Notes: generated from the sequence alone by a model not told the origin. Shown: positions 52,639 through 60,080, counted from the first letter of the stretch. The stretch is DNA of 64,000 bases from Thermoplasmata archaeon (GCA_022749935.1 JAKIWQ010000004.1:2286-66285); one strand, 5' to 3'. Program-made: numbers and translations.

Positions 52639-53106
52639 CTAGGCGTACTCCTCGCCCACCCGGGAGTAGGCGAGATACTCGGTGGGTCCGAAGTAGAGCG
52701 CGAGCTCGCGGGCCGCCGACTCGGGCGAGTCGGAGGCGTGGACCAGGTTGGCCGTGATGCCGAGCGCCCAATCTCCCCGGATCGTCCCCGGAGCGGCCGA
52801 CTGCGGGTTGGTGGCTCCGACGAGCAACCGCACGACGGAGATCGCCGACCGGCCCTCGAGGGCCAGCGCCAGGACCGGGCCCGACGTGATATGCTGGATG
52901 AGCGAGGGGTAGAACGGCTTGCCCTCGTGCTCCGCGTAGTGCCGTTGCGCGAGCTCGGGAGCGAGCTGGACCGCCTTGGCGGCCACGATCTTGAGCCCCT
53001 TGTGTTCCAATCGCGAGACGATCCCGCCGACGAGTCCCCGACGTAGGCCGTCGGGCTTGACCAGGACCAGCGTGCGCTCGACGCTCCCTTCCGCCATCGG
53101 TCGCAC
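52639..53106 (-). CDS. ndk: Nucleoside diphosphate kinase
   Basis: The pattern ERTLVLVKPDG...NLVHASDS matches Ndk, including the active-site His. 155 aa. Confidence 0.92.
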   Translation of the reverse strand: MRPMAEGSVERTLVLVKPDGLRRGLVGGIVSRLEHKGLKIVAAKAVQLAPELAQRHYAEHEGKPFYPSLIQHITSGPVLALALEGRSAISVVRLLVGATNPQSAAPGTIRGDWALGITANLVHASDSPESAARELALYFGPTEYLAYSRVGEEYA

Positions 53107-53162
53107 GAACCGGGCCGGGGCGTAAAGGTTTCCTCCGCCCGCGCTCGGGGGCGGTTTGGACG

Positions 53163-53987
53163 GTGGGTCCCATGGCCGGTCGCGGAGCGAAGAAGGAACG
53201 GCTCGCCCGGACCTTCGACCGGTCGGCCGCGCTCTACGAACGCGGGCGTCCCGGCTACCCCCGCTCGGCCCTCCGGTTCATCGCTTCGAACCTCGGGGTC
53301 GGACGGGGGTCGGTCGTGGTCGACCTCGCGGCCGGGACCGGGAAGTTCACGCGGGAAATCGTCCGGACCGGTGCCGCCGTCGTCGCCATCGAACCAATGG
53401 CCGGAATGCGACGGGAGTTCCGTCGACGGGTCCCCGACGTCCCGATCGTCGAAGGTACGGCCGAGAAGATCCCTCTCCCATCGGGGAGCGTGGACGCCGT
53501 CGTCGTGGCGCAGGCCTTCCACTGGTTTCGGGGACGGCTCGCGCTCCGGGAGATCGCCCGAGTGCTGCGCCCCGGAGGTCTGCTCGTCCTGGTCTGGAAC
53601 ACCCGGGACGACCGGTATCGTTGGTCCCGCGAGCTGACCGCGATCATCGAGGGCGCGGGTGGTCCCCGGATCTATGCCGCCGCCCACGGGGGCGACACGC
53701 TCTGGCGCCGACCGTTCCGCCGGGGGGCCAGTCCCTTCACGGGCTTGAAGAAGCGAACGTTCCCCCACGTCCAGGACGCACCTCCGGGGACCTTTCTCGC
53801 CCGGGCCCTCTCGGTGAGCCTGGTCGCGGCCCAACCCCCTTCAGTGCGCCGCCGGGTGGCCCGCGAGGTACGCACACTCCTCGCGACCGACCCGCAGACC
53901 CGGGGCCGGGAGTTGATCCGACTGACCTACCGTACCGAACTGTTCTGGTGTCGCCTCCGGGCCCCACGGCGGGTGCGGACGATCTAG
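53163..53987 (+). CDS. Class I SAM-dependent methyltransferase (Methyltransf_11/UbiE-like, small-molecule type)
   Basis: Motif I VVDLAAGTGKFT. Motif post-I AVVAIEP. The region VDAVVVAQAFHWF follows. Confidence 0.75.
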   Translation: MGPMAGRGAKKERLARTFDRSAALYERGRPGYPRSALRFIASNLGVGRGSVVVDLAAGTGKFTREIVRTGAAVVAIEPMAGMRREFRRRVPDVPIVEGTAEKIPLPSGSVDAVVVAQAFHWFRGRLALREIARVLRPGGLLVLVWNTRDDRYRWSRELTAIIEGAGGPRIYAAAHGGDTLWRRPFRRGASPFTGLKKRTFPHVQDAPPGTFLARALSVSLVAAQPPSVRRRVAREVRTLLATDPQTRGRELIRLTYRTELFWCRLRAPRRVRTI

Positions 53988-54753
53988 CTCGCGCGGGCGT
54001 CGCACCCGTCGCGCCACGGGCACCGCGCACACCGGCCCGGAGAGGGGGTGGCCCGGCCGTCATAGGGCCGGTCCATCTCGGCGCGAAGGGCGAGCAGGTC
54101 GGCGCGGGCGACGCGGTCCCACGGAACGCGGAACTCGCCACCGTCCCCGTACCGCACCACTCCGTACGGCGGTGAGCGGCCCGTCGTCTCCTCGACGAGG
54201 AGACAATAGGCCCCCACCTGCACCCGATGGGAATACGGGACCCCGCGCGCGGGGGTCGAACGGCTCTTGAACTCGACTGGGACGACGCGCGCGTCCGGTA
54301 GACGCCGAAGCTCGTCCGGTCGGCCGGAGATCCGATACCGGGAGGAGCGAAGGACCGGCGCGGAATCCGACCCGTCGTCCACGGCGAGGAGGGTCCCGTA
54401 CCGACGTTCGCGTCGCCCCACGACGACCGCCCGCATCCCGAAATACACCGCGGCCAACCCCCCGAGGACGAGGGCCGCTCCCACGAACTCGCCTAGAGCA
54501 GCCACGCCGAGCCTCCGAGGACGATGAGGAGACCCGCCACGACGAGGAGCCAGTACGCGACTCTCCACTCCGAGCGACGGCGTTCTCCGCGGAGCTGGCG
54601 GTGGTGAGTCCGGGTCCCGGCCCGAGCGCTCCGGACCGCGTCCGGAGTCGGCCCTCGCTCCGGAGGGTGATGCCGATACCAGTGCGACCGAGGGCAGTAC
54701 GCGTAGTCCGCGAGGTCGGACGCGGAAACGTACCGGAGCCCCTCCGAAGGCAT
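53984..54753 (-). pseudogene. Cas4-family (DUF83, RecB-like PD-(D/E)xK) nuclease, apparently split by a frameshift into two overlapping reading frames
   Basis: ORF 54493..54753 encodes YVSASDLADYAYCPRSHWY, the Cas4 N-terminal Cys motif. A different frame (~54436..53984) encodes RISGRPDELRRL, VVPVEFKSR, HRVQVGAY (QhxxY) and the C-terminal CARCPWRDGC. Both frames are hydrophobic across the junction at 54437-54560. There is no CRISPR array nearby. Confidence 0.5.
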
Positions 54754-54819
54754 CGGGTGAACTGCGGAGCCGCGGAGAAATACGGCTTCCGCTCGAAGAG
54801 CTCGGTGGGGCGTGCCGGT

Positions 54820-55239
54820 CTACGCCTTCGGTGCCGCGGGGTCTGCGGGGGGTTTCTTGGTACGGGTTCGAGGCTTGGATGCCGGCGGGGGCGATGGGTT
54901 CGGGGTTTCGGTCTCGGCCGGAGCCTCCGGCCTCGGGGGAACCGCGGCGGCGGGCGAAGGGGTCGGCTCTTTCGGCGGAACGGCCGGTCGGACGGGTTTC
55001 CCTCGGGAGGAGGACTTCCCGGCCGGTCGGGCGGCGGCGGCCGATCGGTCCGCGGCCCGCTTCAGCGCATGGGCCCGGGTCCACTTCAGGCGATGGCCGA
55101 CCCGGCCGAGGTGGAGCTGTTGCTTCCGGCAGGACGAGGTGCAGAAGTGGAAGATCGACCCGTCGCGCTTGACGAACATCGTACCGGTCCCCGGTTCGAT
55201 CTCCGCGGCGCAGAACGAGCACTGGCGCTTGACGACCAT
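54820..55239 (-). CDS. rpl24e: Ribosomal protein L24e with long Pro/Lys/Ala-rich C-terminal extension
   Basis: N-terminus MVVKRQCSFCAAEIEPGTGTMFVKRDGSIFHFCTSSCRK. A ~70-aa low-complexity tail follows the core. Confidence 0.82.
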   Translation of the reverse strand: MVVKRQCSFCAAEIEPGTGTMFVKRDGSIFHFCTSSCRKQQLHLGRVGHRLKWTRAHALKRAADRSAAAARPAGKSSSRGKPVRPAVPPKEPTPSPAAAVPPRPEAPAETETPNPSPPPASKPRTRTKKPPADPAAPKA

Positions 55240-55248
55240 GGTGGATCC

Positions 55249-55461
55249 CTACCGCACCGAGAGTTTGCGCGCTTCGCGGGCGGTCTCGCGCAGGATCAGG
55301 ACGTCCCCGAGGCGGATCGGGCCGGCCACGTTGCGAGTGATGATTTTTCCCCGGTCCCGTCCGGCGAGGACCCGGACCTTGACCTGCGTCGCTTCGCCCG
55401 CCATGCCCGTACGGCCGACGAGCTCGACGACCTCCGCGGGGGATCCCTTGTCTTCCGCCAC
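55249..55461 (-). CDS. rps28e: Ribosomal protein S28e
   Basis: 70 aa. The region [24 protein letters not shown]...GDVLIL is typical. Confidence 0.9.
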
Positions 55462-55486: not shown

Positions 55487-55885
55487 CTACTTCTTGAGGT
55501 TCGGGAACTGGGCCGCGATCTCGTCCAGGAGGGCCTTGGCTTCCCCCGGCTCCACGACCGCCACGCTCGCCGCCGACTTGGAGAGGCCGGCCGACTGGCC
55601 GAGCCGCTGCTTCTTCGGGACGTAGACGTAGGGGATCCGCTTCTCCTCGCACAGCATCGGGATGTGGACGAGGATCTCGACCGGGTCGACGTCCTCGGCC
55701 ATGATGACGAGCTTGGCCTCGGACCGTTCGCTCGACTTCGTGACCTCGTTCGTGCCGACACGGACCTTTCCCGTCTCGCTCGCCACCTGGACGAGCTGCA
55801 GGGCCTTGTCGGAGAGTTCGGTCGGCGTCTCGAATCGTACGTAGATGGGTCGCGCCATGGTTCCTCGCGTCAGCGGAACCCCCAT
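55487..55885 (-). CDS. rpl7ae: Ribosomal protein L7Ae (K-turn binding)
   Basis: The region VQVASETGKVRVGTNEVTKS...KLVIMAEDVDPVEIL is typical. Confidence 0.92.
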   Translation of the reverse strand: MGVPLTRGTMARPIYVRFETPTELSDKALQLVQVASETGKVRVGTNEVTKSSERSEAKLVIMAEDVDPVEILVHIPMLCEEKRIPYVYVPKKQRLGQSAGLSKSAASVAVVEPGEAKALLDEIAAQFPNLKK

Positions 55886-56000: not shown

Positions 56001-59000
56001 CTACGGTCCCGGTTCCCCGTAGGTCGTCTCGGGCGTCGTGTCCTCCGGTTCCCTCACCGGTGGGTGGGCCGGAGGCGTCGCGGTCGGAGGCGACTCGGCT
56101 TCCCCCTCCCCGTACGTCGTCTCTGGTGTGGTGTCCTCGGGCTCCCTCGCCGGCGGGTGGGTTGAGCTGGTCCCGGTCGGAGACGACTCGGCGGGGGGTC
56201 CGCGGACGCGCCGCTTCCGGGCGAACAGTAGGCCGAGCACCAGGGCCACGAGAGCCAGCCCCACGGCCGCGTAGACCCAGAGCGGGAGGGCGGAGCCCGG
56301 ACCTCCGGAGGAAGCAGAGGAAGCGACCACGGTGAGGGTCACTTGGTCCCCGACCGTTCGGTTCAACTGATCGGTCGCTCGCACGCTGACCGAGAACGTG
56401 CCCAGCACCGCGGGGAGGCAGCTGACCGTAGAGGTATTCGCACTCTGACATCCCGTCGGAAGGCCCCCGTACGCGTACGTCACCGCCCCGACCGCGCCCA
56501 CCAACGTGACGGTGAGGCGGGAGGTCGCGCCGAGAGAGACCAACGCCGGCGAAGCGACGAACGACCCGACGGCCAACGTCGGGGGGGTCGAGACCGAGAG
56601 GGTGAGCATCGCCTTCGAACGGCCGCCCTGGAGGTCGGTGACGTTGACCGTGACGGAACTGTTTCCGACCGCCGTCGGGAAGCAGTGAAGGACGGCGACA
56701 TTTCCACTGGTACACCCGCTCGGGAGTCCTGAGTAGGAGTAGCTCAGCGACGCCCCGGACGCGACGACCGTGAGGACGGTCGTCTCGCCGAGGTAGATCG
56801 AGCTCGCCGACGCGGTGAAGGACGTGATGGTCGGGAGGGGGATCCGATACACCGTGAGGGTCGCGTTCGCCTCCGCGGACTTTCCGTAGATGTTCGTGGC
56901 AGTGACGGTCACGGTGTAGTTGCCGACAACCGACGGGGTGCAGGCGAGGGCCGAGATGTTGGCCGATGCGCACCCCGTGGGGAGTCCGGTGTACGCATAG
57001 TTCATCCAACCGTACGCCCCGGTGGCCACGGTCTGGAAGACCGTTCCGCTCCCGTTCGGGATGCTCGGCGGGACGGCTTGGAACGAGGTGATCACGGGAT
57101 TCGGGTCGGGCAACACCTGGAGCGTCAGGTTGGCGGTCGCGGTCTTTCCGTAGGCGTTGGTGACCGTGACCTCGACCGGATAGCTTCCGAGGACCGTCGG
57201 GGTGCACCCGAACGAGGAGAGGTTCTGGCTCCCACAACCGGGGGGCAGTCCGGAGTAGGTGTAGGCCAGCCAGCCGTACGCCCCCGTCGCGTTGACGCGG
57301 AGGACGCTCGCGTTATGGAGGAAGATCACCGAGGGGGTCGCCGCGAACGTCTGGATCACCGGAGACGGGGCCACGCTCACGGAGAGGCTCGTGTTCGCGA
57401 ACGCCGTCACGAGGTTGGCGTTGGTCACCGTGACCTCGATCGTGTAGGAGCCCGACCCCGTGGGGGTGCACGCCAGGGACGAACTGTTGACGGTCCCGCA
57501 CCCGGCCGGCAACCCCGTGTAGGCGTACGCCAGCCAGCCATACCCACCCGTCGCGTTCACCATCAGGGTCGTCGCATTCCCGAGGAAGAGAGAGGGCGGG
57601 TTCGCGGAGAACGAGTGGATCTGGGGAGCCGGCAGGGTGTGCACCACCAGGTCCGTGAAGGCGGTCGTGGACCGTCCGGCTCCGTCGGTCACGAGGACCT
57701 CCACGCGATACTCGCCCCGCGAGGTCGGGGTGCACAGGAAGGAGGGCCCGTTCGTACTCGAACATCCGGGGGGAAGTCCGGAGTACGCGTACGATAGGGA
57801 GCCACTCCAACCTTTCGCCGTGACATTGAACGTGGTGCTTCCGCCGATCTGGACGCTCGCAGGGGCGGCCGTGAACGAAGCGACGTATGGGGCCCCGGAC
57901 GAGTTCGTGGGGAGGATGGAGATCCCGCCCCCGAGGACGTTGGCCACATAGAGGTCCCCGTTCCCCGGATCGTAGGCGAGGGACGAGGGACCAGCCCCCA
58001 CGCTCACATTCCCCAACGGCGAGAACGTCGTCGCGTTGTAGAACGTGAGGTTGTCGGTCGCGTAGTCCGCGGTCACGACCTCTTCCGTCCCGCTGAGGTA
58101 GGTCACGTCCGTGGGATCGGCCGTGCCGAGCGAGTAGGACGTGAGGGCGCGGCCGGTGCTCGCGTTGTACGCACCGAAGTAGGAGGGACAGAAGAGGCAC
58201 CCCTCCGCGACGACCATCGCGTTGGCGGCCGGGTCAAAGGTGATCGCCTCGGCCCGTCCTCCCGCGGGAAGCGGAACGTAACCGGTCACGTTGTCGGTGA
58301 AGGGGTCGATGATCGAGATCGTCGTGGTGTACCCCCCTGCGGTATTGTTCTGGATCCACAGTTCGCCCGTGACCGGGTCGTATCCGACCGCGTTGGGCGC
58401 GCCGCCGAAGGGGATGGTCGCCATGGTCAGGAGCGAGGTCGCGTTCACGACCGTCACGTAGCCGTTCGGCTGACAGAAATTGTCGACGTAGACGAACTGG
58501 TTCTCTGGGTCGTACGTCGCCCCGGAGGGGCTGCAGGATCCCGTGGCGAGGTTGGTGATGAGGTGGCCGGAGGTGGAGTTGACGACCCGAACCCCTGCCG
58601 TGGCCGCGACGAAGAGCTCGTGGAGGCCCGCAGCGTAGACGAGGGGGGAGGCGGACGGAAAGCTCGAGGCGGTAGGGTTCTCGTAGAACCCCCCGGTCCC
58701 GGACGGGCCGCTCAGGTTGAGGACCGTCCCGTAGGTCTCGGCGGTGGTCAGGAAGCCGGACCCGCGGAGCGGGTCCGCCACGAGGGTGGAGAGGACCGCT
58801 CCCGTCTCGATGTAGGTGATGCTCCCGAGCCCCGCGCCCGAGAGCACGCTCACGTTGTATCCCGCGACATCGAGGGCCCGAGCCGTCGGATCGTAGACGA
58901 GCTGGTTCGCGCCGTTTCCCGCGTAGACCGAGGGGCCAACCAATCGGGTGAGGAGGTTGACCGCCGTCAGGTTCGGCGAGGGGTACTCCGTCAGGTAGAG

Positions 59001-60080
59001 GGTGTGGAGGGAGGCATCGATCGCGAGCGCGGTGGGAAGGCCCGAAAATCCGATGGGCGCCAACAGCGTGTCCGTCGTGGCGTTGGCCTCGGTCAAGTTT
59101 CCGAGGGAGGCGCCGCCGGCCCCGTACGTGAAACTCGCGATGTAGAACGTCTGGCCCCCCGGCGCGACGACAAGGCCGACGCCGGTGTTGGCGTAGGTGA
59201 CCGAACTCAACCAGGCAAAGGTCGTGGCGTTGAAGATCGAGACGTTGCTCACCGAACTGTCCATGACCAGGAGCTCGTTCGTCAATGCATCGAATGCGGC
59301 GGCGAAGAGATCGGTCCCGAAGGTGACGTTAGTCTGGACCGTAACGGCCGTCGCGTTGATGACCGAAAAGGCTCCGTCGCCGTCGGCCAGGAAGACGTTG
59401 CCGGTGATCGTGTCGAGGGCCAGCTGCTCGGTCGAGCCGAAGGCGTTCCCCGCCGTGAGATTCGCCACGACTTGGTCGGTCGTGGTGTTGATGACCGAAA
59501 CCTCCCCCAAACCCGAATCGCCCACGTAGAGCTGGTGGGTCAGCGGGTCGAGCAGCATCGTGGAAGGGGTGGCGCCGGCGGGGAGGGAGATGATCGCGAC
59601 GACCCGGTCGAGCGTCAGGTTGATGACGTCGACCCCGTTGTGCGTCCCGCCCCCGCCCGTGGCCGCGACGTACAGCAACTCGCGTCCCGGGTCCACGGCA
59701 TCGCTCAGGTCGTTCGGTCGGTTGAGCGGTTGAAAGTTTCCGCCGACTAGGGTCTGGTTGAAGACCACGTAGGTCGAGTTCACGGCAGGCACGCTGGGAA
59801 ACGGTGGGGGCACCGCCGGCAGGCCCCGCGACGTTCCGATGCTGGAGAGCTGATCTACGGGGGTGAATGGTCGTCCGGAGTGGTTCCCAGCGAGCGCATT
59901 CGGCACCATCATCCCCGAAATGACAAACCCTGTGACCAGTATCCAGGCAAGGATGGTCGGGAGACGGCTCCGATTCGCGCGAGAAGACCCGGTACCACCG
60001 GGGGGCACTCGAACTGGCGTGGCCACCGGAAGTTCTGAACGCTGGAGTGAGGCGGGTCCGTCCGAGAATTGAGTCGACAC
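56001..60080 (-). CDS. Giant cell-surface glycoprotein: signal peptide, YVTN-type beta-propeller region, seven tandem ~90-aa Ig/PKD-like Cys-containing repeats, C-terminal TM anchor and repetitive acidic cytoplasmic tail
   Basis: The signal anchor ends in ALAG. YVTN-like repeats include LYVANVLGGGISIL. The repeat unit Y-x-YSGLPxGC...C.PT..G.Y...VTVT occurs 7 times. TM segment LWVYAAVGLALVALVLGLLFARKRR. The tail carries 2x PPxREPEDTTPETTYGE. There are dozens of NxS/T sequons. Confidence 0.8.
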   Translation of the reverse strand: MSTQFSDGPASLQRSELPVATPVRVPPGGTGSSRANRSRLPTILAWILVTGFVISGMMVPNALAGNHSGRPFTPVDQLSSIGTSRGLPAVPPPFPSVPAVNSTYVVFNQTLVGGNFQPLNRPNDLSDAVDPGRELLYVAATGGGGTHNGVDVINLTLDRVVAIISLPAGATPSTMLLDPLTHQLYVGDSGLGEVSVINTTTDQVVANLTAGNAFGSTEQLALDTITGNVFLADGDGAFSVINATAVTVQTNVTFGTDLFAAAFDALTNELLVMDSSVSNVSIFNATTFAWLSSVTYANTGVGLVVAPGGQTFYIASFTYGAGGASLGNLTEANATTDTLLAPIGFSGLPTALAIDASLHTLYLTEYPSPNLTAVNLLTRLVGPSVYAGNGANQLVYDPTARALDVAGYNVSVLSGAGLGSITYIETGAVLSTLVADPLRGSGFLTTAETYGTVLNLSGPSGTGGFYENPTASSFPSASPLVYAAGLHELFVAATAGVRVVNSTSGHLITNLATGSCSPSGATYDPENQFVYVDNFCQPNGYVTVVNATSLLTMATIPFGGAPNAVGYDPVTGELWIQNNTAGGYTTTISIIDPFTDNVTGYVPLPAGGRAEAITFDPAANAMVVAEGCLFCPSYFGAYNASTGRALTSYSLGTADPTDVTYLSGTEEVVTADYATDNLTFYNATTFSPLGNVSVGAGPSSLAYDPGNGDLYVANVLGGGISILPTNSSGAPYVASFTAAPASVQIGGSTTFNVTAKGWSGSLSYAYSGLPPGCSSTNGPSFLCTPTSRGEYRVEVLVTDGAGRSTTAFTDLVVHTLPAPQIHSFSANPPSLFLGNATTLMVNATGGYGWLAYAYTGLPAGCGTVNSSSLACTPTGSGSYTIEVTVTNANLVTAFANTSLSVSVAPSPVIQTFAATPSVIFLHNASVLRVNATGAYGWLAYTYSGLPPGCGSQNLSSFGCTPTVLGSYPVEVTVTNAYGKTATANLTLQVLPDPNPVITSFQAVPPSIPNGSGTVFQTVATGAYGWMNYAYTGLPTGCASANISALACTPSVVGNYTVTVTATNIYGKSAEANATLTVYRIPLPTITSFTASASSIYLGETTVLTVVASGASLSYSYSGLPSGCTSGNVAVLHCFPTAVGNSSVTVNVTDLQGGRSKAMLTLSVSTPPTLAVGSFVASPALVSLGATSRLTVTLVGAVGAVTYAYGGLPTGCQSANTSTVSCLPAVLGTFSVSVRATDQLNRTVGDQVTLTVVASSASSGGPGSALPLWVYAAVGLALVALVLGLLFARKRRVRGPPAESSPTGTSSTHPPAREPEDTTPETTYGEGEAESPPTATPPAHPPVREPEDTTPETTYGEPGP
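56036..56212. repeat. Direct tandem repeat, 2 x ~84 bp (~85% identical), encoding the duplicated Pro/Glu/Thr-rich C-terminal tail of the surface protein
   Basis: The two units are 56036-56118 and 56129-56212, aligned by eye. Confidence 0.55.
56230..58100. repeat. Tandem ~270-bp coding repeats (7 units) within the surface-protein gene
   Basis: The motif ccgtacgcccc(c/g)gt(c/g)gc / ccatacccacccgtcgc recurs at ~270-bp spacing and matches the protein-level repeats. Boundaries are approximate. Confidence 0.45.

Follow-up and report, generated by a model that had tools for sequence, protein, structure and literature searches.

A role in defence or repair has been proposed for solo-Cas4 proteins, and the survey by Hudaiberdiev et al. 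places a monophyletic group of them in many Chloroflexi (PMC5704561). The term 'iron staple' has been used for Cas4, and cysteine mutants of the M. mazei solo-Cas4 lose their Fe-S cluster while keeping nuclease activity (PMC12501428). In SSO0001, a Cas4 of the CRISPR (clustered regularly interspaced short palindromic repeats) kind, the catalytic metal ligands are reported to be His62, Asp99, an acidic residue at position 113 and Lys115 (PMC13621843). Here we describe a gene pair that carries the same motif set in divided form. It was found in a stretch of 64,000 nucleotides (nt) from a Thermoplasmata archaeon (GCA_022749935.1, JAKIWQ010000004.1:2286-66285), and this whole stretch is referred to below as the window. 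The two genes, open reading frame (ORF) A and ORF B, lie in different frames of the minus strand between rpl24e and ndk, with an S-adenosylmethionine (SAM) methyltransferase gene on the plus strand of the same interval. The pair is a conserved arrangement of two genes and probably forms an operon for a translationally coupled, heterodimeric, membrane-tethered nuclease of the Cas4 family.

The preliminary description of the window, made from its sequence alone, had recognised a solo Cas4-family, RecB-like nuclease whose motifs are divided between two frames meeting at a hydrophobic stretch, and had taken the division for a real or sequencing frameshift or a sign of decay. The recognition was borne out, and the explanation was not. 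Translation places YCPR in frame A and GRPD, EFK, QVGAY and CARCPWRDGC in frame B, the two frames meeting at a hydrophobic stretch at 54434-54561, and the matches to the Cas4 profile TIGR00372 (E 1.4e-4 for ORF A and 9e-13 for ORF B) are well beyond chance. GenBank holds the pair as two adjacent coding sequences (CDSs), MCI4364780.1 (86 amino acids (aa), 'Cas4') and MCI4364779.1 (173 aa, 'PD-(D/E)XK nuclease family protein'). The features of the pair are as follows.

54493-54753, minus strand: ORF A, 86 aa, ATG start, matching positions 2-50 of TIGR00372
54688-54699, minus strand: YCPR motif with Cys20, presumed first ligand of the Fe-S cluster (from the translation)
54604-54618, minus strand: G46-x3-H50 motif (RecB motif I), the His a presumed metal ligand
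54496-54561, minus strand: transmembrane helix 1, VAYWLLVVAGLLIVLGGSAWLL, at the C-terminus of ORF A (Kyte-Doolittle)
53984-54505, minus strand: ORF B, 173 aa, GTG start at 54505 and stop at 53984, matching PF12705 and positions 58-178 of TIGR00372
54434-54502, minus strand: transmembrane helix 2, AALGEFVGAALVLGGLAAVYFGM, at the N-terminus of ORF B (Kyte-Doolittle; helix 2-36 in the AlphaFold2 (AF2) model)
54314-54325, minus strand: GRPD (RecB motif II, catalytic Asp64), aligned with GRAD of SSO0001
54266-54274, minus strand: EFK, E78-F-K80 (RecB motif III), aligned with IEIKT of SSO0001
54206-54220, minus strand: QVGAY, Q96-x3-Y100, with Q96 and Y100 invariant
54002-54031, minus strand: CARCPWRDGC, C159-x2-C162-x5-C168, three presumed C-terminal Fe-S ligands, the cysteines invariant

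ORF A corresponds to the N-terminal piece of Cas4. Its match to TIGR00372 scores 21.7 bits, and the Cas4 models of PADLOC are split between ORF A and ORF B in the same way as TIGR00372. Among the sequences of the Protein Data Bank (PDB), the ORF A profile finds its best match in the Cas4 protein Pcal_0546 (4R5Q, E 0.0067), and in this alignment the YCPR of ORF A falls on YCPR and its G..H motif on GRILH. A homologue search returned 90 proteins, all but one of which are 85-98 aa long (the remaining one has 111 aa), and C20, P21, R22, G46 and H50 are invariant across 27 homologues. The consensus, drawn from 76 locus-derived and 27 database sequences, reads S-x-SDLA(D/E)YAYCPRxHWYRxHPP...G-x-RYH...L..ER.R and then runs into a hydrophobic C-terminus. 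This terminal helix has a 19-residue Kyte-Doolittle maximum of 2.29 at residues 68-86 (family median 2.33, from residue 68 of 87), and the 16 residues before it carry a net charge of +4.

ORF B supplies the remainder of the domain. Its TIGR00372 match scores 48.4 bits, and the superfamily model PF12705 recognises it at 34 bits, above the cut-off of 22. Eleven residues (G61, R62, P63, D64, E78, K80, Q96, Y100, C159, C162 and C168) are invariant in 27 homologues, and the CxxCx5C pattern is shared by 258 of the 269 members of the family that were inspected. At its N-terminus the family has a variable hydrophobic helix, for which the 19-residue Kyte-Doolittle maximum in the window is 1.96 at residues 11-29 (family median 2.44 at residue 6); the 16 residues that follow it have a net charge of +4. 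Because of these transmembrane helices and their positive-inside charges, ORF A is predicted to be tail-anchored and ORF B signal-anchored, with the soluble parts of both in the cytoplasm. When a conceptual fusion of the two ORFs was used as the query, more than 460 homologues were found; the 120 best matches are 154-180 aa long, mostly 169-177 aa, which is the length of ORF B counted from its GTG, and none of the 120 covers the ORF A part.

An AF2 model of ORF B alone has a confident core and a Cys-rich tail with a predicted local distance difference test (pLDDT) score of 35-53. Its best PDB match is the Cas4 of 8D3L (E 5e-6), with partial cover and a TM-score of 0.43-0.48 on the target. The ill-defined tail of this lone chain gives a faint hint that ORF B may depend on ORF A. 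Cys101 of ORF B was considered as a substitute for the fourth cluster ligand and was rejected, since unsplit homologues keep Cys101 as well as the N-terminal cysteine and the residue is thus not specific to the split form.

That the two ORFs are complementary parts of one domain is seen most directly in relatives in which the domain is not divided. When 1.84 billion representative sequences were searched with an ORF B profile, there were 1803 matches at E < 1e-3 and 648 at E < 1e-10. In a minority of these the Cys helix, the transmembrane helices and the core are held in one chain (P0267, of 243 aa, P0233, P0319, P0351, P0298 and P0313); P0267 is MBI4344301.1, annotated as a 'Dna2/Cas4 domain-containing protein'. 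With unsplit sequences as the only targets, hhalign placed the ORF A family on residues 2-77 (probability 96.7%, E 3.7e-10) and the ORF B family on residues 112-242 (probability 100%, E 2e-39), and the conserved residues of both ORFs occur in the same order in the single chain. The four Cas4 cysteines, one N-terminal and three in CxxCx5C, are complete only when the two polypeptides are taken together. By alignment with the metal ligands of SSO0001, ORF A would supply the His and ORF B the remaining ligands.

The AF2 model of P0267 is a confident one (pLDDT 92.4, predicted TM-score (pTM) 0.87), with block means of 86-91 to compare with the 35-53 of the Cys-rich tail in lone ORF B. It begins with short N-terminal helices, followed by a long helix at 32-76 which bears the G..H motif and continues as transmembrane helix 1; a 4-residue loop then leads to a second long helix at 81-109 and to the alpha/beta core. 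The point at which the chain is divided in the window is this 4-residue loop. The top Foldseek match of the model is the Cas4 of 8D3L (type I-C Cas4-Cas1-Cas2; E 3.6e-8, TM-score 0.67 over the whole target), and AdnAB, Cas4-Cas1, Dna2, SSO0001, MGME1 and ACE1 are among the further matches.

The gene boundary itself is conserved. In a collection holding one genome per species, 272 stretches encode a relative of ORF B, and 80 of these loci were kept; the window and three further loci, obtained by exact look-ups, bring the set to 84, in which a few duplicate one organism. The kept loci come from metagenome-assembled genomes (MAGs) of soil and peat projects labelled Thermoplasmata, apart from one Methanobacteriota and one 'bacterium', and they include UBA184, UBA61 and AcS/SubAcS-type MAG names. 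In 83 of the 84 loci ORF A immediately precedes ORF B, and in the exception the contig begins 9 nt before ORF B. Order and strand are L24e-A-B-ndk in all 68 complete loci, and no fused form was found among the close relatives. The two-frame structure and the ORF lengths are alike in different species, and in 80 of 83 loci ORF B is read in the -1 frame with respect to ORF A. The overlap of the two genes is 13 nt in the window. In every one of the 78 loci that could be scored the start of ORF B overlaps the end of ORF A, by 1-52 nt overall and by 4, 13, 16 or 19 nt in 73 of them, and a start codon stands at the N-terminus of the ORF B family (46 GTG, 27 ATG and 5 TTG). Co-occurrence and start/stop overlap are the features by which a translationally coupled gene pair is recognised, and both are found here. 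Against about 80 relatives and at a dS of about 1, ORF A has a median ratio of non-synonymous to synonymous substitution (dN/dS) of 0.36 and ORF B one of 0.28, and both ORFs are under purifying selection. The periodicity of G+C at third codon positions (GC3) agrees with the frame of ORF A in the stretch that encodes it, and with that of ORF B in its own stretch.

One 256-aa fused ORF, seen in a long-read MAG chromosome (loci L002/L009, OY970259.1), was considered as a natural unsplit form and rejected, as it contains one extra G relative to the short-read copy; it is an example of a real indel at this gene. In the same 8.5-kb stretch of that chromosome ndk is split, the methyltransferase is shortened and the Sua5-peptidase M24 gene is a fusion; none of these defects is present in the short-read assembly.

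The family extends beyond the Thermoplasmata. Among the 269 proteins inspected, 214 (∼80%) are of the ORF B type, with one transmembrane helix and the core and without the Cys helix, whilst 23 (∼9%) have the Cys helix in the same chain together with two, or apparently four or eight, transmembrane helices; these helix numbers are approximate, as adjacent helices merge in a simple count. Many of the short forms come from Anaerolineae/Chloroflexota, where they are annotated 'Cas4'. In three Chloroflexi loci, of Anaerolineae (L084, L087 and L088), a gene of 79-81 aa lies directly upstream of one of 171-177 aa, and one example of the upstream product reads MKPIRASEIGTYLYCRRAWWYRLNG...AGTDLHRRHG..., ending in a transmembrane segment. 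The frame relation varies between the three: in L084 the second gene follows in the same frame after the stop and one codon, in L087 the genes overlap by 1 nt and in L088 by 4 nt. The 79-aa ORF A-like gene of L084 (2758-2997, bacterial MAG GCA_020630175.1) is uncalled in the public record, upstream of an annotated 172-aa 'Cas4'. Annotation probably overlooks the small partners of this family in many other cases.

In these three loci the pair is followed by nadK, a ∼170-aa protein without a Pfam match, and recN, and there are no ribosomal genes. This neighbourhood is a possible hint of a link with DNA repair, although nadK and recN are commonly adjacent in bacteria anyway. The unsplit archaeal forms lie between genes for ArsR-type regulators near a dnaK operon, or near rpl3. 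The sole constant across contexts is the pair itself. Some relatives appear to have four or eight transmembrane helices, arranged as repeated pairs between the Cys helix and the core, in proteins that span 320-600 aa (P0249, P0253, P0258 and P0277, of ∼325 aa; P0264, P0297, P0301 and P0348, of 557-596 aa). In these relatives the membrane part seems to do more than anchor the protein.

Two candidate expression signals accompany the pair.

54777-54790, minus strand: promoter-like AT-rich box, GGAAGCCGTATTTC, with its centre ∼27 nt before the ATG of ORF A
54512-54516, minus strand: Shine-Dalgarno-like GGAGG within ORF A, 6 nt before the GTG of ORF B (from the sequence)

The consensus of the box is AATCGGTAAG, and its version in the window is GCCGTATTTC. 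Across the 79 upstream regions aligned, the AT fraction reaches its maximum of 0.66 at -30 to -26 and lies at 0.17-0.42 elsewhere, so that this is the sole AT peak in the 80 nt upstream of ORF A. The box is kept beside ORF A despite inserts of 0.3-1.6 kb after L24e in some loci. Archaeal TATA boxes have a known spacing to the transcription start. Because the distance of the box fits this spacing, it suggests that the pair has its own promoter, which would give a leaderless mRNA. A scan for sigma-70 promoters found nothing, the sigma-70 model not being applicable to archaea. A strict Shine-Dalgarno-like motif precedes ORF B in 24 of the 78 scored loci, compared with 7% at random positions of the same loci, an approximately fourfold enrichment. 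In many relatives the conserved 'LGG..W' of ORF A encodes both a G-rich box and the start of ORF B (xxA/G/T-TGG, in the -1 frame).

Taken together, we would picture the system as follows. A promoter of its own probably drives the pair and gives a leaderless mRNA, and ORF B would be translated by coupling, from a GTG placed 13 nt before the stop of ORF A and 6 nt after GGAGG. ORF A would contribute the N-terminal helices, the 'iron staple' Cys20, the motif-I His50 and a tail-anchoring transmembrane helix, and ORF B a transmembrane helix, Asp64, Glu78, Lys80, QxxxY and the three C-terminal cysteines. The transmembrane helices of the two chains might pair like the hairpin of the unsplit proteins and so bring the halves together, and the [4Fe-4S] cluster and the catalytic metal site would then each be built from residues of both chains. 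The predicted product, a metal-dependent DNA nuclease of the Cas4/solo-Cas4 kind, would be tethered to the membrane and cut at its inner face. Its likely role would be the processing of DNA ends at the membrane, either in defence against or handling of incoming DNA or in repair, and the tether would hold the nuclease away from the nucleoid. In the history that we propose, the pair became fixed between rpl24e and ndk in the ancestor of these high-GC soil Thermoplasmata and has been inherited vertically since.

The surroundings of the pair in the window are as follows.

55487-55885, minus strand: L7Ae, strong Pfam match
55249-55461, minus strand: S28e, strong Pfam match
54820-55239, minus strand: rpl24e, the upstream flank (PF01246, E 4.8e-16, residues 5-57 of 139)
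53163-53987, plus strand: class I SAM methyltransferase (Methyltransf_11, Pfam E 2.4e-21)
52639-53106, minus strand: ndk, the downstream flank (PF00334, E 1.8e-52)

L7Ae-S28e-L24e-ndk is a contiguous cluster in archaea (PMC10833476), and the preliminary description was right that a nuclease and a SAM methyltransferase lie here between two genes that are adjacent elsewhere. Because the A-B block lies between L24e and ndk in every complete locus, it is an old, fixed insertion, ancestral to the lineage and inherited vertically. The methyltransferase had been called divergently oriented, which holds with respect to ndk; with respect to ORF B the two genes are convergent. At 53984-53987 the stop codons of ORF B and the methyltransferase share the palindrome CTAG and give a 4-nt convergent overlap of the 3' ends, and the same is seen in L001 and L003. 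Of the 68 complete loci, 61 have the methyltransferase in this position, flanked by ORF B and ndk and encoded on the other strand. Its PDB and NCBIfam matches are of the generic small-molecule type only, with none to a DNA methyltransferase, and it is probably an independent neighbour. A role as a restriction-modification-like partner of the nuclease was considered and rejected, the protein being a generic Methyltransf_11 that is missing in 7 of the 68 loci and absent from the Chloroflexi loci that hold the pair.

Four other explanations were weighed against the reading of the pair as a coupled two-chain nuclease. The one offered by the preliminary description, a single Cas4-like gene broken by a real or sequencing frameshift and decaying, draws on the motifs of one domain lying in two overlapping frames and on the true 1-nt indel in L002/L009, where the 256-aa fusion is artificial. 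However, the same two-frame structure and lengths recur in 80 of 83 loci, the two intact genes are found together in 83 of 84, both evolve under purifying selection with all invariant residues intact in the window, their starts and stops overlap in all 78 scored loci, the same split occurs in Chloroflexi, and GenBank carries two intact CDSs. The comparison of synteny that the description itself had suggested gave L24e-A-B-ndk in 68 of 68 complete loci, the outcome which it had named as speaking against a broken gene. We regard this explanation as extremely unlikely. Programmed -1 ribosomal frameshifting, by which the split would be merely apparent and one protein would be made, would account for the -1 relation in 80 of 83 Thermoplasmata loci; the B frame is also open upstream of its start in the window, though this is expected anyway at 70% GC. 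Against this, the 13-nt overlap holds no slippery heptamer, 20 loci overlap by 4 nt only (ATGA or GTGA), the start codon at the family N-terminus is conserved in 78 of 78 loci, the frame relation differs among the three Chloroflexi loci, and slippage before transmembrane helix 1 would delete that helix. Such frameshifting is very unlikely. The block has also been seen as sitting at an insertion hotspot, and a recent mobile insertion of nuclease and methyltransferase as restriction-modification-like defence cargo would explain why a cluster contiguous in other archaea is interrupted (PMC10833476) and why its boundaries vary: some 14 loci have an extra 0.3-1.6 kb between L24e and ORF A, several have additional sequence ahead of ndk, and 7 of 68 lack the methyltransferase. 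The hotspot idea thus keeps a little substance, whereas the recent insertion does not, as the position is kept in 68 of 68 loci across many species and the composition of the pair is native (GC 0.71-0.73 and GC3 0.81-0.83, with a genome GC of 0.70). In addition, no integrase, repeat or tRNA was found near the pair, a PADLOC scan of the 33 other predicted proteins of the window gave no defence-gene match, and the methyltransferase is not of the DNA type and does not accompany the pair in Chloroflexi. A recent insertion is highly improbable, and the comparative data effectively exclude both it and the broken gene.

It is less easy to dispose of the view that ORF B alone is the membrane nuclease, with ORF A a separate small protein of the membrane (such as a regulator or an inhibitor, or a remnant kept for the translation of ORF B). 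The catalytic residues of D, ExK and QxxxY are all in ORF B, the cluster-free solo-Cas4 of M. mazei is still active (PMC12501428), and the 3' end of ORF A partly doubles as ribosome-binding site and start of ORF B. On the other hand, the conserved residues of ORF A are exactly those of the N-terminal piece of Cas4 (the Cys of YCPR, and G..H); they are remote from the overlap and evolve under purifying selection, unsplit homologues keep them in one chain with the core, and ORF A is present in 83 of 84 loci. On balance we consider this view unlikely. Several points nevertheless tell against the heterodimeric nuclease that we favour. Neither ORF reaches the curated Cas4 cut-offs (21.7 and 48.4 bits with TIGR00372, for which 65 is needed), and PF01930 gives 12.6 bits, below its cut-off of 22.7. 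The strict Shine-Dalgarno-like motif is present in just 31% of loci, and the low confidence in the tail of ORF B may be due in part to the different alignments used for the two models. Because the M. mazei cysteine mutants stay active, the cluster may be dispensable for catalysis, and ORF B may work without the cysteine of ORF A. Finally, the neighbourhoods differ by lineage (the ribosomal cluster, nadK-recN, ArsR-type regulators) and tell us nothing firm about the role of the pair.

The remainder of the window is consistent with a chromosomal housekeeping region. No CRISPR-like repeat array was found in its 64 kb, in line with the solo character claimed for the nuclease from the outset, and no Rfam family, including tRNA and CRISPR repeats, reached its gathering score anywhere in it; no cas1, cas2 or other cas gene was seen near the pair, either in the window or in the related loci inspected. 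The other proteins of the window are housekeeping ones (PolD, RNR, RadA, FtsZ, enzymes of purine and NAD synthesis, and ribosomal proteins). The G+C content of the window is 69.6%. A value of ∼69% has been reported for Lutacidiplasmatales/UBA184 (PMC9287336), and by its G+C and several of the MAG names the organism looks like a member of this high-GC lineage of soil Thermoplasmata.

Some further observations concern the flanking genes. The 139-aa L24e consists of a normal L24e domain of ∼60 aa and a Pro/Ala/Lys-rich C-terminal tail of ∼75 aa, and the extension is lineage-wide, with versions of 157-165 aa in the relatives L001, L003 and L030. The cargo found after L24e includes a 464-aa polytopic membrane protein in L041-like loci (L041 2359-3753) and a second SAM methyltransferase in L030 (2840-3595). 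Beside the ribosomal cluster, at 56001-60080 on the minus strand, lies a gene for a 1359-aa protein with many similar domains of ∼95 aa and N-x-S/T sites throughout. Its C-terminus has a hydrophobic stretch, likely a membrane anchor, and then a Pro/Thr/Glu-rich tail encoded by a 93-nt tandem repeat (56014-56192). It looks like a surface protein of the S-layer or adhesin type.

A recognised native split has practical consequences. Annotation pipelines name ORF A 'Cas4' or 'hypothetical' and ORF B 'PD-(D/E)XK nuclease', and they sometimes miss ORF A, so that the pair can be mistaken for a pseudogene by readers and by quality filters; recognising the split as native guards against false frameshift calls. 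A large, membrane-anchored subgroup made of two chains also narrows where and how such nucleases can act, and it would be a natural experiment on the 'iron staple', in which the cluster would have to hold two polypeptides together. A bolder proposal, which we put forward tentatively and think rather doubtful, is that the pairs of Thermoplasmata and Chloroflexota form a widespread and hitherto unrecognised class of obligate heterodimeric membrane nucleases, to which the unsplit forms and those with several helix pairs are related. Their cluster and metal site would be built across two single-pass proteins, activity would arise only on assembly of both halves with the cluster, and the enzyme might serve at the membrane as a guard, possibly redox- or iron-gated, that degrades incoming DNA. 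A heterodimeric membrane guard of this kind would give solo-Cas4 a concrete cellular role. The pair remains a variant of a well-known enzyme family, and no new biochemical principle has been shown.

The closest of the known systems in sequence and structure is CRISPR Cas4 (DUF83/COG1468, TIGR00372; SSO0001 4IC1, Pcal_0546 4R5Q and 8D3L), which gave the best matches to the pair and has in common with it the fold and the motif set of N-terminal Cys helix, G..H, GxxD, ExK, QxxxY and C-terminal CxxCx5C. In contrast to CRISPR Cas4, the pair has no cas1, cas2 or CRISPR array nearby, its scores are under the curated cut-offs, two transmembrane helices are inserted between model positions ∼50 and 58, and the domain comes from two genes. 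In its setting the pair is more like the solo-Cas4 of archaea and Chloroflexi, which (PMC5704561, PMC12501428) also lies outside CRISPR-cas and mobile contexts, is vertically inherited at the level of orders and is under ordinary purifying selection. The M. mazei solo-Cas4 is a soluble, single-chain homo-oligomer with subunits of ∼31 kDa (PMC12501428), whereas the pair would consist of chains of 9.9 and 19 kDa with one predicted transmembrane helix each. The accessible text of Hudaiberdiev et al. 2017 (PMC5704561) uses 'membrane' once and 'split' nowhere, and describes no split or membrane-anchored Cas4; nor did we find such a description in the searchable literature, the coverage of which is incomplete, and we provisionally take the arrangement to be undescribed.

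The comparison extends to the iron-staple nuclease domains of AddB/AdnAB, Dna2 and Exo5, in which, as is proposed for the pair, the RecB-type active site has around it an N-terminal helix and a C-terminal Cys triad, linked to each other by an Fe-S cluster. Those enzymes are large, soluble helicase-nucleases with the staple in one chain, whereas the staple of the pair would join two small membrane proteins. The unsplit membrane Cas4-like proteins of the same clade (P0267, P0233, P0319 and P0351 among them) are direct homologues, which have the same residues in the same order of helix, transmembrane helices and core, but carry them on one polypeptide and in other genomic contexts.

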